Shown here: one piece after another, positions 2,586 to 56,830 of the stretch
Position numbering within the stretch: position 1 is the stretch's first letter
How the letters are laid out: each line of letters begins with the position of its first letter
DNA from: Ginglymostoma cirratum
Taxonomy: Eukaryota
Length of the DNA stretch: 64,000 nt
Reading direction: 5' to 3'
Assembly (NCBI GenBank): GCA_024137785.1
Contig: JAHRHZ010000066.1
Span: forward strand, 1,224,491-1,288,490
Position numbers and translations under genes: made by a program
The notes under the pieces: generated by a model
The model's database searches: none
Seen by the model: only the letters and a program-made list of their open reading frames with translations
Told to the model about the DNA's origin: nothing

Positions 2586-2797
2586 GGATAGAAGGAATTG
2601 CCGATGCTAGAGAATCTGAGATAACAAGGTATAGAGCACGATGAACACAGCAGGCCAAGCAGCATCAGAGGAGCAGGAAAACTGATGTTTCGGGTCTAGA
2701 CCCTTCTTCAGACATTTCTGAAGAAGGGTCTAGACCCGAAACGTCAGCTTTCGATGCTGCTTGGTCTGCTGTGTTCATCCAGATCTCTACCTTGTTA
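2586..2797. mobile_element. Penelope-derived short element (family A), inverted duplication with two hammerhead-like cores
   Basis: Arms are inverted about ~2714. + core CTGAAGA-A-GGGTCTAGACCC-GAAACGTC at 2718-2745, with a mirror core on the minus strand at ~2684-2711. Imperfect TSD ccccaat(at)gtctctc at 2570-2583 and 2798-2813. Confidence 0.75.
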
Positions 2798-3171
2798 CCC
2801 CAATATGTCTCTCTTCCTTTCCTCTACTCAGAACCTACCAGTTATTGTGTACTCTCTTGTCTTGCTTGTCTGCCTCAAAGAACCTTACCTCATGCTTCTC
2901 CTGTTTGAAATCCATCTGAAAATTTCCTACCCACCTGACCAACCCATTGATATTATCTTAGAGCCTATAGCTTCTTTATCACTATTAACCACAATTTTTC
3001 ATATCACTTGCAATTTATTAAATCATACCACAATATTTTGTTCTTATTCATTGATAAATACCAGGAACTGCAAACAACCTGTAATGAGCCCTCCAGAAGC
3101 CAACTCCAAACTGCCCTCCAGGCACATTACACTTAGCTTTCCGTTACTAAACCAATTTTAGATCTAACTTG

Positions 3172-3567
3172 GGAACAAAAACAAAGTTGCTGGAAAAGCT
3201 CAGCAGGTCTGGCAGCATCTGTGGAGGAGGAAACAGAGTTAATGTTTCGGGTCCGGTGACCCTTCCTCAGAACTGATGGTGGCTGGGAAAACGTCAGTTT
3301 ATATGCAGAAAATAGGGAGGTGGGTGGGGAGGGAGTAAACGATAGGATAGAGCCCAAAGAGAGAGCAAGACAGTTGGACAGACGAGGGAGTTGCTAAGGA
3401 TCAGGCTGGGAGGATGAGTAGTTGTTAATGGGATTGTTAGTTGTTAATTTTTTCCTGAAACATTAACTCTGTTTTCTCCTCCACAGATGCTGCCAGACCC
3501 GCTGAGCTTTTCCAGCAACTTTGTTTATGTTCCTGATTTACAGCATCTGCAGTTCTTTTGGTTTTTA
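3172..3567. mobile_element. Penelope-derived short element (family B) with inverted ends, hammerhead core on minus strand and 15-bp TSD
   Basis: Exact TSD TTTAGATCTAACTTG at 3157-3171 and 3568-3582. 3172-3248 is an inverted copy of ~3457-3533. Minus strand 3274-3237 reads AGTT-CTGAGGA-A-GGGTC-ACCG-GACCC-GAAAC-ATT-AACT. Confidence 0.8.
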
Positions 3568-3582
3568 TTTAGATCTAACTTG

Positions 3583-4520
3583 CCATTTGCCTGTGGATTA
3601 TATGAGATTATGATTATCTGACCATTCTGCCATATGGAATCTGACCAAACATATTGCCAACACCCATATGGACCGCATCAAATATGCTATATTCATTGAC
3701 ATTCTTTTGCCTCTTCAAAAAGTTTAATCATATTAGTCAGACATGATCTTCCTTAATAATCTATTCTCAATATCCTTGACTGATTCATGCCTCTCCAAAT
3801 GATCACTGTTATTATCTCTCAAAGTCTCTTTCCAATAATTTACTTGCCAATGAGGATAGGCTGACTGCTATTTAATCACTCAACTTACTTCAGCCAAAAT
3901 CATATTTTAGCATAGCTTAGTAACATCATCTTTTTCCAGTTCAAAACATTTTCTCTTGTTTTGTCGTTATCCTTTGCCATAGCTATTCTAATCGAACCGA
4001 ATTATGATCAATACAACCAAAATGTTCTTCCACTGATATACCTTCTGCCTGCCCACATTTATGTCCTAAAACTATCCTTCTTTTGCGAAGTTTGCAATGT
4101 ACTGGCTAAACAAGTTTTTTTTAAAATATGTTTTAAGGATTTTGTGTCCTCAGTGCCTTACAAATTGTATGTATCCCAGTTGATATACCCTAGGAGCGCT
4201 GCCCTGTTAGTCGTACACCACAGCAATTCACCTACATGTTTGCTATTCTATTCTCCCTCTGACTGTTTGGGTGTCTATCATGTCTATTTGGGTTGTGATT
4301 TGATTGCTCCAATTTTCCTTCTTCAAATCAACTCATTTAATTCATTTGATGTCCCTTCTAGCACATCATTCCTCTGCATCTCTAAAGTTATTTCCTTAGC
4401 TCATATTGTAACCATATTTTTATTTTTATCCTCCCCTTATCCTATTTGAAATTCTAGTATTCAGGAATGTTGAACTGCCATTCCTGTCGACCCTGAACAC
4501 ATGCTTCAGTAACAGCTGCA
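3583..4520 (-). mobile_element. Old CR1 LINE ORF2 remnant (continues to ~2800-3156 on the other side of the Penelope insertion)
   Basis: Decayed reverse-strand RT motifs (YRPISL-like ggataggctgactg, SCLTN-like attagtcagacatgat, AFD-like atcaaatatgct). Confidence 0.55.
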
Positions 4521-4522
4521 AT

Positions 4523-4790
4523 AACAGTGGTGTAGTGGTAATCATACTGGATCAGTGATCCAGAGTTCCAGACTAACGTTCTAATAAGGGGACACGAATT
4601 CTGATTCCACTATGGTAATTGATGGATTTTAGTTCAGTTGGTTAAATATGGAGTCAAACCTCGGTAAAGTAAGGATCATTATGAACTATCACTGATTGCT
4701 CTAAACACCGTTGATAAGGGAAATCTCTTGTTTTTACCTGGTTTGGCCTCATGTGATTCCAAATCCACAACAACGAGTGATTCTTGAGAT
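4523..4790 (+). mobile_element. tRNA-derived SINE (old shark family)
   Basis: A-box-like cagtggtgtagtggtaa, a degenerate B-box region, and body motifs cctggtttggcctcatgtgattccaaatccaca. Confidence 0.55.
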
Positions 4791-54500: not shown

Positions 54501-54780
54501 CATGGGGTATAAATTTAAGGTAAGAACTAGAGTGTTAAGGAAGAGTTGAGGGCGTTGTTTTCACTCCGAACATGGTAGGAGTCTGGAAGTCACTGTCTGA
54601 AGGAGTGGTTGAGTCAGAAACTCTTGTAACCTTGAAGCAGCTTTCAGATACAAACTTGCATTGCCATAGCCTCCAGGAGTGTGGACCAAGAGCTGGAAAA
54701 TGGGATTAATGTTAAATTTTTTTGTTGACGTGATGGGCTAAATGGCTTCTTTCTGTGCTGTAAACAGCTGAATCTGAGTC
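51560..54780 (+). mobile_element. Decayed CR1 ORF2 (APE-RT) followed by a second CR1 3' fragment (~54110-54780)
   Basis: LLDLMLGN ~52140, AFDK ~53252, FINDFD / SKFAED ~53452-53510, and RPQLEY-like, ALERVQKRFTRMLPG ~54298, SYEERL motifs. Confidence 0.75.
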
Positions 54781-55057
54781 TAAGGATCAAAGCAGGACCT
54801 TACCTATATCAAAAACACTTTTGTGTGGGATTTTTCACCGTTTCTGTCTTTGAATTTGCTTCTGATTTCTTGGTAGCGCCAGGCATTTCAATTGTTAGTA
54901 AACTAAAGAGTCAATGTAAATTCATTCAGCATAATTTTCACTAAGTTTTATTAAAGCTTATGCTGGAGCTTTAATCGATAAAGTTAAGTTATGAAAGTCA
55001 ATTCAAAGGGTCCTCTGGATACTTTATGCACTGGACTAGAACAAAATAACAGAAGAG

Positions 55058-55422
55058 GGGGTGGCACAGTGGCTCAGTGGTTAACACTGTTGTTTCACAG
55101 CACCAGGGACAACACCAGTGTTCAATTCCAGCCTTGGGTGACTGTCTGTGTCGAGTTTGCATGTTCTTCCTGTATCTATGTGGGTTTCCTCTGGGTGGTC
55201 TGGTTTGCTCCCACAGTCCAAAAATATGCAGGTTAGTTGGATTGGCCATGCTAAGTTGTCCATAGTGACCAGGGATTTGTAAGTTAGTGGATTAGCCATG
55301 GGAAATCCACGGTTACAGAGATGGCAGGGGAGTGAAGTCTGGGTGGAATGCTCTTTGGAGAATTGGTGTGGACTTGTTGGGCTGAATGGCCTGTTACCAC
55401 ACTGTGGGGATTCTATGATTCT
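55058..55422 (+). mobile_element. HE1-type SINE
   Basis: ggcacagtggctcagtggttaacactg, gttcaattcca, ccacagtccaaaaatatgcaggttag, and tail ccacactgtgggattctatgattct. Confidence 0.85.
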
Positions 55423-55562
55423 GAGAGTTCAAACCTGAAATTCTAATCACCACCAGGGTCTTTGCACACTGTGCTAAGATTCAGTGGCCTGGACTGAGCA
55501 GATAGGGATCAACTGTTCCCATTGGTGGAAGGATTGAAAAGTAGAGGGTAGAGATTTAACAT

Positions 55563-55939
55563 CTAAGGTTTTGGAGTAGATTTGTAGCTCGGGTTGTGGG
55601 TGTTGAGGTTGGTTGGCTCGCCGAGCTGGTTTGTTGTTCTGCAGACATTTCGTCCTGGGACAGGCTAGGCAGAGACTGGCACGAGAATTCGTAGAAGCGT
55701 GGCACTCCACGAAGCATGCTATTAATAAACACATTGAACTCGACCCCATATACATTCCACTACGAAGGAAAACCGGAAGTGAGGCAACCCATCTCAACTG
55801 ACCCCAGAGTTTAAAAACCAGGCAGGAAAACACACCGACGCTTCATCGGAGGCCGCACTGAGGATGTTACCAAGCATGGTAACGAAACGTCTGCGAAACA
55901 ACAAACCAGCTCGGCGAGCCAACCAACCTCGACAGCCTC
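55563..55939 (+). mobile_element. 5'-truncated Penelope-like element (family C): inverted pseudo-LTR piece, GIY-YIG-type C-terminal remnant and hammerhead; 12-bp TSD; inserted in a CR1 3' end (~55480-56185)
   Basis: TSD GAGATTTAACAT at 55551-55562 and 55940-55951. Inverted repeat 55605-55653 / 55882-55930. ORF remnant LGQARQRLAREFVEAWHSTKHAINKHIELDPIY resembles the end of Penelope endonucleases (REFxEAW...IN). Confidence 0.85.
55854..55895 (+). ncRNA. Minimal type I hammerhead ribozyme motif
   Basis: CGCA-CUGAGGA-U-GUUACCA-agca-UGGUAAC-GAAAC-GUC/UGCG. Helix I CGCA:UGCG, 7-bp helix II, intact core, palindromic ACGU in place of helix III, predicted cleavage after C55891. Confidence 0.8.
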
Positions 55940-56574
55940 GAGATTTAACATAACTGATAAAAGGAACAGTGGCAAAAAAACCTTTTCACACAGCAAGTGG
56001 TTGGATCTGGAATGTATTGTCTGAGAGTGTGGTGGAGGCAAGTTAAATTGTCGCATTCGAAAAAGGAAAAGGAAAGGATGTGCAGGAGAGAAGGCAAATG
56101 AATGGCATTAGGAGAACTGCTCTATCAGAGAGCCTGCACAGACACAATGGGCTAAAGACTTCCTGTACTGTAACCATCCTGTAAATAAAATGATGATAAA
56201 AATAAATTTGGATGAGCATTTAAAGAAAATAAACTTCCATAGCTAGGGGACAGAGCGAGAATGCAATTGATTGAACTGATCAACAGAGAATTGACATGGA
56301 TGTGATGATGGAGTAGCCTCCTCCCCACTGTTCTGACTGACATTTCAGGTGATAATTGGATTGAAGAGATGTTGGCCTGATAGAGTACTGACCAATGGCT
56401 AACAGAAATAAAATTTATTTGTCTGGCTAAAGAAGATCAATGCTAAATAGCAAGTTTCAACACTCTTAGGCCACTGGCAACACAAATGTTTTATTTCTTT
56501 AAGTATAAGCTTGTTTCCTTAAATGCACCCTATATTTGTATTTTCTGCAAATGGTCTAGGTTGGCAATTTAGTG

Positions 56575-56830
56575 AGGTAGTCTTCCATTGTCAGAGCTGC
56601 TGTTTTTCAGATGAGATCTTAAACTAAGGCTTTGTCTCAAAGTATACAAGATTCCAATGCACTATATCACAAATAACCTTCTGTTGTGGTGGGGATAACA
56701 CAGTGTGGAATTGGAGGAACCCAGCAGGCCAGGCAGCATCAGAGGAGCCTGAAAGCTGATGTTTTGGGTCGGGGCACTTCTTCAGAAAGGTGTCCTGGTC
56801 AAGACTCTAACCTCGGCTAAATGTCAACAA
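56575..56830 (+). mobile_element. Deu-domain SINE remnant interrupted by a minus-strand family A Penelope-derived monomer (~56692-56788)
   Basis: gctgtttttcagatgagatcttaaactaaggc...agattccaatgcactat...ggtgtcctggtcaa resembles the Deu domain. The insert reads cagcaggccaggcagcatcagaggagc...gttttgggtcggggcacttcttcag. Confidence 0.55.

Follow-up and report, generated by a model that had tools for sequence, protein, structure and literature searches.

Family A repeats of Ginglymostoma cirratum as pseudo-LTRs of a Penelope-like retrotransposon, with ends and junctions that suggest run-off copying of its RNA

The stretch of DNA analysed here (the window; 64,000 nucleotides of Ginglymostoma cirratum, GenBank assembly GCA_024137785.1, contig JAHRHZ010000066.1, positions 1,224,491 to 1,288,490 of the forward strand) carries a short dispersed repeat, family A, which an earlier note had described as a non-autonomous, ribozyme-bearing element mobilised by Penelope machinery. 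Family A is almost certainly the 96/130-nt terminal repeat, or pseudo-long terminal repeat (pseudo-LTR), of an autonomous Penelope-like retrotransposon.

Positions within the repeat are counted with the first C of CTGA as +1, the three preceding T as 0, -1 and -2 and the A before those as -3; hammerhead cleavage is predicted between +28 and +29. The seven loci named in the note (2586, 5230, 12203, 34277, 38513, 50236 and 56692) are all there, with a common body at 79-95% identity, and so is the core CTGAAGA-A-GGGTCTAGACCC-GAAACGTC, which is deleted at 5230 and lies within a 400-N gap at 34277, as claimed. The number of arms, however, is eleven, since four of the loci (2586, 5230, 34277 and 38513) are head-to-head inverted pairs. 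The unit lengths of ~100-130 bp reflect two fixed 3' ends, at about +94 and +128, referred to below as tail-less and tailed. The arms are the following.

2584..2715, minus strand: tailed arm, +128 back to -3, core C3 at 2711; left arm of a head-to-head pair
2713..2797, plus strand: tail-less arm, about -4 to +90, with a short internal deletion, core C3 at 2718; right arm of the 2584 pair
5230..5315, minus strand: older tailed arm, 5' end at +39, core absent
5321..5371, plus strand: older tail-less arm, +33 to about +83; pairs with 5230..5315
12203..12301, plus strand: single tail-less arm, -2 to +96
34276..34356, minus strand: tailed arm entering the 400-N gap (34357-34756)
34757..34803, plus strand: tail-less arm emerging from the gap; pairs with 34276..34356
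38513..38609, minus strand: tail-less arm, from +96 to -1; its pair, of which it is the left arm, sits within another repeat
38617..38746, plus strand: tailed arm, -2 to +128; right arm of the 38513 pair
50228..50322, minus strand: single tail-less arm, -3 to about +95, core C3 at 50318
56694..56788, minus strand: older single tail-less arm, -2 to +92

Each of the four pairs consists of one long and one short arm and is flanked by target duplications of 10-14 nt. Around 2584-2797 these are duplication-like 10-mers at 2569 and 2797 with one mismatch, the left copy lying 5 nt off the arm; around 5230-5371 a 13-mer at 5217 and 5379 with one mismatch; around 34276-34803 an exact 14-mer at 34263 and 34804; and around 38513-38746 an 11-mer at 38505 and 38748 with one mismatch. 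For the last insertion there is also an empty site, as the paralogous repeat at 11331-11415 holds a single copy of the 11-mer. The remaining three loci are single short arms, and no target duplication was found in the flanks of the arm at 12203..12301. The repeat that received the 38513 insertion has copies at 11329-11415, 16572-16613, 38429-38515 and 42910-42951 and is presumably the 3' end of a long interspersed element. Many inverted pairs have a run of ~400 N in the middle, in the window (34357-34756) as well as in other stretches of the genome (L063, L067, L097, L125, L169, L187, L200), which indicates that hairpin centres are under-read in the assembly. A search of the window against Rfam gave sub-threshold microRNA hairpin matches to the inverted pairs only, and no hammerhead family matched.

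The identity of the parent element follows from longer copies. Among the 30 best genomic matches, several extend upstream with common sequence into frames with YIDD and GIY-YIG-like motifs. One copy (L161) is organised as repeat, open reading frame (ORF), repeat, with a unit of 3,630 nt and a 900-codon stop-free frame that contains the motifs YIDD and VVY..C..C..Y.GET. Pseudo-LTRs flank the ORF in this copy (5112-8984) and in L201-L230, and the family A unit is seamless with the Penelope ORF on both sides. Judged from these sequences, family A is the first ~130 nt of the 3.63-kb unit, repeated at the unit's 3' end. In Pfam the L161 frame matched RVT_1 (E=2.3e-6; 27.9 bits, below the cut-off of 29.6) and weakly GIY-YIG (E=0.078, below the curated cut-off); five frame pieces of two other copies (L014 and L024) gave no Pfam match, and the sequence search of the PDB gave none either. 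Of 8,000 scored proteins, 2,330 were homologues of the L161 protein at E<=1e-20. Nearly all of the 120 homologues listed carry PF26215, most also PF28514 and PF00078, and some PF01541; the closest named ones among the matches listed are from Chiloscyllium, Rhincodon (88%) and Stegostoma, followed by rays. Two suppositions of the earlier note are thereby borne out: the unit is continuous with an ORF bearing a reverse transcriptase (RT), as expected for Penelope machinery, and it is the pseudo-LTR of such an element.

A CX4CxxC linker (CNRRKCYTC in L161) between RT and endonuclease would place the parent with the Neptune/Nematis type, both clades being candidates; from their vertebrate distribution we presume that Neptune is the likelier. 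The first in-frame ATG of L161 lies at +47 and the next one noted at +167. The former opens a short ORF of 27 codons inside the repeat (+47..+130; L161:5273-5356), whose stop ends at +130, at the end of the tail. The available part of PMC8557442 describes Neptune and Nematis with a CX2-5CxxC linker, pseudo-LTRs, an inverted 5'-truncated copy and a 30-40-bp tail at one end. The parent of family A resembles them in its single ORF with RT and C-terminal GIY-YIG, its linker, pseudo-LTRs, inverted copy and tail, and in the variable target duplication.

For counts beyond the window we used a sample of 132 arbitrary 10-kb stretches with 816,045 readable bases, which is not strictly random, as about half of the first 96 stretches were N and 36 were then placed near readable ones. 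After 15 of 147 hits were dropped (sister families or less than 83% identity), 121 sample arms and the 11 window arms remained. The sample arms form 88 loci, 33 pairs and 55 singles, or one per 9.3 kb, so that the density of one locus per ~9 kb noticed in the window also applies genome-wide. This extrapolates to about 470,000 loci (bootstrap 370,000-580,000), well above the "tens of thousands" given in the available part of PMC8557442 for the most abundant Naiads, and the whole element makes up about 3.6% of the sampled bases. Some loci are mirror images or identical duplicates of each other (L198:7379-7502 and 8918-9041; L138/L139), which could be due to segmental duplication or to assembly.

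The 3' ends of the 121 sample arms are bimodal, with 63 tailed (about +128) and 51 tail-less (about +94); four end elsewhere, two in gaps, and one continues into the ORF. The motif TATCTC is found at both classes of 3' end, and the tail measures about 34 nt. These two classes match the published 30-40-bp tail (PMC8557442) and the two start sites described for PAc, a Poseidon element of Anolis (PMC11167929). In the inverted pairs exactly one of the two arms is tailed, in 29 of 30 pairs (p=3e-8; the mirror-image locus was counted once, the arm at L191:7721 was re-read by hand and two gap-bearing pairs were dropped). With the window included, 32 of 35 pairs are flanked by duplications of at least 9 nt, against 3% of 1,739 shuffled flank pairs, and in 18 of 29 pairs there are exact duplications of 9-18 nt. 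The arms of a pair agree at 338 of 375 subfamily sites, whereas shuffled arms agree at 61% on average and at most at 74% in 2,000 shuffles, and two pairs (L241, L245) have an identical restart junction, of the kind described below, on their two arms. The pairs resemble foldback elements, which might suggest a miniature inverted-repeat DNA transposon with terminal inverted repeats. Such an origin can be practically dismissed, given the asymmetric ends with one tail, the lack of fixed terminal inverted repeats, duplications that vary from 9 to 18 nt, the 55 of 88 loci that are single arms and the continuity of the unit with a reverse transcriptase ORF.

A more serious alternative for the pairs is fold-back self-priming of antisense RNA or cDNA, with one tail then trimmed by the endonuclease, as suggested in the available parts of PMC3846280 and PMC8557442. 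This would yield arms of the same subfamily with one tail per pair. It is also compatible, in its antisense version, with the observation that the tail-less arm reaches further 5' in 17 of the 22 unequal pairs (p=0.017; four further pairs are equal). However, the tailed arm exceeds its partner in the other five pairs, by as much as 1 kb, so that neither arm is always a copy of the other. Moreover, many central junctions contain 1-25 inserted letters, some of them templated nearby, instead of the overlap that fold-back requires, and PAc extends both nicked strands in vitro (PMC11167929). Since each arm can hold sequence absent from the other, two priming events fit better than fold-back copying, which we regard as rather unlikely.

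The 5' ends carry the second part of the argument. Among 111 arms with a visible 5' end, 30 begin at -4..0, and 22 of these at -3/-2 (p=6e-19 against a uniform distribution). The earlier note had proposed that 5' ends might cluster at the CUGA core; they do cluster, but the peak lies 3 nt before CUGA and not at the cleavage site, where ends (+28..+31) are not enriched (4/111, p=0.41). The 21 arms with an end at -3/-2 carry T (12 arms), A (4), G (4) or C (1) at position -3, where the templated base is A; the excess of T resembles untemplated A-tailing at run-off. A long run of A/T occupies the centre of one pair. A start at -4..-2 is also seen in copies that extend into the ORF (L162, L211, L220, L226, L229). 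Contigs of four sequencing runs from two organisms show loose ends at -3/-2, +92..+94 and +128/+129, although these are copy boundaries and cannot show RNA starts.

The third observation concerns loci picked for a junction from repeat to ORF, which often read from the start to some point in the body and then restart in the repeat. We examined 150 loci picked by body sequence (five sets of 30) with 63 distinct body 3' ends. A restart in the repeat follows 41 of these ends, in 34 cases at -10..+8, and 7 run into gaps; only 11 body-to-body junctions were found. Among the 21 junctions with inserted letters, AG stands directly before the restart in 10 (p=2e-6), and 5 of the 41 restarts are preceded by five A's (p=4e-4). 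In 33 cases where the first segment could be compared with the restart, it begins within 3 nt of it in 13, downstream in 18 and upstream in 2. A comparison of the two direct repeats within 18 junction loci, meant to show whether they came from the same RNA, gave divergences of 6.5% against 7.0%, a difference with no bearing on the question, as all these loci had been picked from one subfamily. We infer that the restarts arose by copying off the RNA 5' end onto the RNA 3' end, with an oligo(A) tail as the source of the A's and the cap as that of the G.

Another explanation would be that the restarts are old internal deletions of deleted source elements that were copied as such. Indeed, body end points recur (at about 271, 295, 406-417, 452-458, 766-771 and 1419-1423), and four loci repeat a junction within one insertion, two of them with the same junction on both inverted arms (L241, L245) and two with the same junction twice on one arm (L230, L233). 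Between loci, however, the restart position or the inserted letters differ even at the same body end, and old deletions would not be expected to give 34 ends inside a 19-nt window against 11 body-to-body junctions. We therefore consider this origin quite improbable.

Taken as a replication cycle, the preferred reading is as follows. Transcription would start around -3, at CCATTT/TCAGTT, a motif that we call initiator-like on the basis of the initiator consensus. The GIY-YIG domain would nick both target strands about 12-15 nt apart, and each nick would prime at one of two internal start sites, probably on the same RNA. A protein dimer could prime both target strands on one RNA in this way, one per start site, and one primed strand per start site would give the rule of one tail per pair. 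The cDNA might then run off the RNA 5' end and be end-joined, leaving family A as a single arm or as a head-to-head pair. Alternatively, it might jump to the RNA 3' end and continue, whereby the arrangement repeat-body-repeat would be rebuilt. Family A would thus be a strong-stop-like product of the replication cycle. We consider it probable that the short copies are run-off cDNAs, for which reverse transcription started inside the RNA and reached its 5' end. The chances are about even for the full cycle, which combines a start near the RNA 5' end, copying through start and cap, an end-to-end jump to the oligo(A) 3' end of the same RNA and double priming on one RNA. As a separate observation, just upstream of the proposed start the 3' untranslated region (UTR) of the element contains a long pyrimidine tract ending in TTTCAG (about -35 to -22, e.g. 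L161:5190-5205), which looks like a strong splice acceptor.

The peak at -3/-2 could also have a simpler cause, if the element produced ordinary 5'-truncations primed at the 3' repeat and the peak marked a stall or cut site, due to a bound protein, the C-rich tract or endonuclease cleavage at ATT. The PAc endonuclease prefers ATT just downstream of the ORF-repeat junction (PMC11167929), and positions -3..-1 read ATT here; the C-rich tract lies directly upstream, and 26 of the 111 arms cross the site. Nevertheless, a stall alone leaves unexplained why restarts with A or AG inserts are joined to truncated bodies and why ORF-bearing 5' copies start at the same place, and the restart positions range from -7 to +6, as would those of a start-site cluster. 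A stall or cut site is thus an unlikely source of the peak.

Several observations weigh against run-off copying and the jump. The proposed 5' end is not reached by 43 of the 111 arms, which stop at +2..+62, and the 26 crossing arms continue seamlessly for at least 40 nt upstream of -3, into 3' UTR or ORF, as do several ORF-bearing copies across the same position; either some templates do not end at -3, then, or a second, homologous jump must be assumed. Selection of the junction set followed BLAST scores and was not random, and of the 88 random loci only one is of the restart type. Among the 63 body ends, 15 have no restart in the repeat. The arms that hold the same junction twice (L230, L233) are explained by a circular RNA as well as by repeated jumps, and the G before a restart could be untemplated instead of cap-derived. 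The public runs consist of contigs only, in which no RNA 5' end is observed. Furthermore, duplications of at least 9 nt flank only 20 of 53 single arms, the similarity of arms within a pair could also stem from gene conversion, and in vitro no difference in start sites between the two strands was seen (PMC11167929).

The earlier note had taken family A for a distinct non-autonomous, retrozyme-like family. This view finds no support: the unit is seamless with the Penelope ORF and 26 of 111 arms extend into the 3' UTR or ORF of the element. The best identity of short arms is 0.958 to long arms and 0.959 to other short arms (p=0.96; 72 of 81 scored), and 53 of 81 short arms share an exact nine-site haplotype with one of the 26 long arms. 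No tandem array of hammerhead units was seen in the sample, where 3 same-strand neighbours occur among 121 arms, and none of 143 combinations of arms has host DNA captured between direct copies. These sequence comparisons do not point to a separate non-autonomous lineage. Propagation from short master RNAs of its own would agree with the fact that most arms are short and that the putative start site and both initiation sites persist in single copies, some of which could thus be re-copied; the available part of PMC3846280 also reports host DNA captured between solo repeats. But private lineages, tandem arrays and host capture are all missing from the sample, and the copies hold an uncut hammerhead and do not begin at +29, which makes such a family very unlikely here. 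Non-LTR retrozymes (bioRxiv 10.64898/2026.07.22.740005, as far as its available part goes) are likewise short, non-coding and Penelope-related with a type I hammerhead. However, they form tandem arrays with a hammerhead per unit, while family A is dispersed, single or head-to-head, and part of an autonomous element.

The repeat nevertheless contains what appears to be a minimal type I hammerhead, with the core CUGAnGA, GAAA, NUH and helix II. Of 66 arms, 47 have an intact core and 59 retain the 4-bp stem of helix II. A relaxed minimal-hammerhead pattern matched 62 times in sample and window, against 0-1 times per shuffle in five shuffles. Mismatches outside CpG amount to 2.0% in the core against 8.2% (p=0.012), or 3.7% without the subfamily columns, although alignment edges may flatter the core. 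Polymorphic columns (0 of 10 in the core against 17 of 66; p=0.10) are not significant alone. Subfamilies differ at N7 and in the helix II loop and not at catalytic positions. Monomer folding rated family A cores no better than shuffles (z +0.5 to +2.2).

The pairing of helix I depends on the subfamily. It had been called poor, which holds for the subfamily of the window (two contiguous pairs in 14 of 18; all six typed window arms are of the broken AUUU/AGCU type with one pair lost) but not for sister lineages, in which helix I appears intact. A sister subfamily with one extra A, AUUU/AAGU (4 bp) or AUUU/AAGC (3 bp), accounts for about 44 of 100 typed arms under a typing rule that mis-binned a few mutated arms, has at least three contiguous pairs in 22 of 26, and is less diverged (median 3.4% against 6.7%, p=0.001). 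Related lineages have AGUU/AACU, AGUC/GACU or CGCA/UGCG. Helix I covaries across lineages. Pairing holds in 94.6% of 184 cells, double changes are seen at 7 of 8 pairs and none of 500 shuffles scored as high, but the 23 motifs were picked by eye from 38, which favours structure, and several of the changes come from one family C sequence. In the Neptune-type lineages helix I begins at the A of the initiator-like motif.

The perfect 12-nt palindrome of helix II described for the best copies is present in 3 of 7 window arms, but it is a minority variant (4 of 76 sampled arms), and as a dimer device it was rejected for that reason. Of the proposal that two palindromes favour dimers, only the half based on ACGU in helix III stands, and this corresponds to the dimer model for minimal hammerheads in the available part of PMC4209133. 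The minimal hammerheads of metazoan pseudo-LTRs described there share with family A the CUGAnGA/GAAA core, the extra base before helix II, G10.1-C11.1, ACGU in place of helix III and a mostly scattered occurrence as single motifs. They differ in that helix II of family A has only 4 bp and that the window subfamily has lost one helix I pair. Moreover, family A copies argue against a cleaved or circular RNA as the template of short units. That 5' ends show no excess at the cleavage site would bear on the template that is copied and not on the catalysis of the putative ribozyme. Hammerhead cleavage does not seem to be needed for family A copies, and the lineage with the damaged hammerhead amplifies about as much as its intact sister, which is in line with dispensable cleavage.

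Two sister families occur in the window. Family B, a Penelope end as well, has a helix I of 4 bp (AGUU/AACU) and a longer helix II. At 3165-3555 two of its arms stand head to head, one of them tailed, and are flanked by an exact duplication of 15 nt (3157 and 3568); further copies lie at 8386-8517, 23608-23705, 26506-26606, 43373-43500 and 46250-46461. Family C forms a head-to-head pair at 55598-55937, and the hammerhead in its plus arm (C3 at 55858, helix I of 4 bp, helix II of 7 bp) is a textbook example of the minimal type and comes after the apparent end of a GIY-YIG ORF, which we take to be of the Poseidon type.

The hammerhead, the optional 34-nt tail, inverted pairs and solo copies are already published features of Penelope elements; what is new is the mechanistic part, i.e. 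the pile-up of 5' ends, the restart junctions and the one-tail rule. The last two are quantified here for family A, which is not the case in the available part of PMC8557442. The closest experimental system is PAc, which has two internal start sites bounding the tail, extension of both strands and an uncut hammerhead in the copied RNA (PMC11167929). It belongs to another clade, and the first in-frame ATG of the family A parent lies at +47 and not at stem II; the available portion of PMC11167929 describes no run-off or jump. A faint top band on addition of 3' sequence is mentioned there. The Penelope elements of Adineta, according to the available part of PMC3846280, also have direct and inverted pseudo-LTRs with a tail on one, solo repeats and an Inr-like motif in the repeat. 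Their duplications of 8-10 bp are shorter than those of family A, and, unlike in the reading preferred here, inversions are ascribed to self-priming and solos to recombination or deletion. In the available part of PMC2377424, no mechanism for the regeneration of pseudo-LTRs is evident, and it is argued that they are not made by reverse transcription, on the grounds that some copies lack them; such copies could be accommodated if the jump were optional. We found no paper that states the run-off and jump or the double-priming model, and older papers (Arkhipova 2006, Evgen'ev and Arkhipova 2005, Pyatkov 2004) may discuss it. As a family, family A is an ordinary, if very abundant, Penelope end, and its value is that of a natural dataset. 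If the jump is real, it would be how pseudo-LTRs regenerate, and the genome would be a record of the Penelope replication cycle at very high copy number. The junctions give a specific mechanism that can be tested in the existing in vitro assay for PAc.

The window contains further features apart from the Penelope-like families. A dispersed repeat with a tRNA-like head is present in three copies (32459-32807, 41237-41511 and 55064-55422); ARAGORN found no tRNA in it, and we assume that it is a shark short interspersed element. There are also an unrelated hairpin at 13546-13625 and two repeats in two copies each (2172-2338 and 43741-43899; 40264-40330 and 43001-43067). Finally, the GC-rich stretch at 6136-6603 could be a host promoter or first exon.

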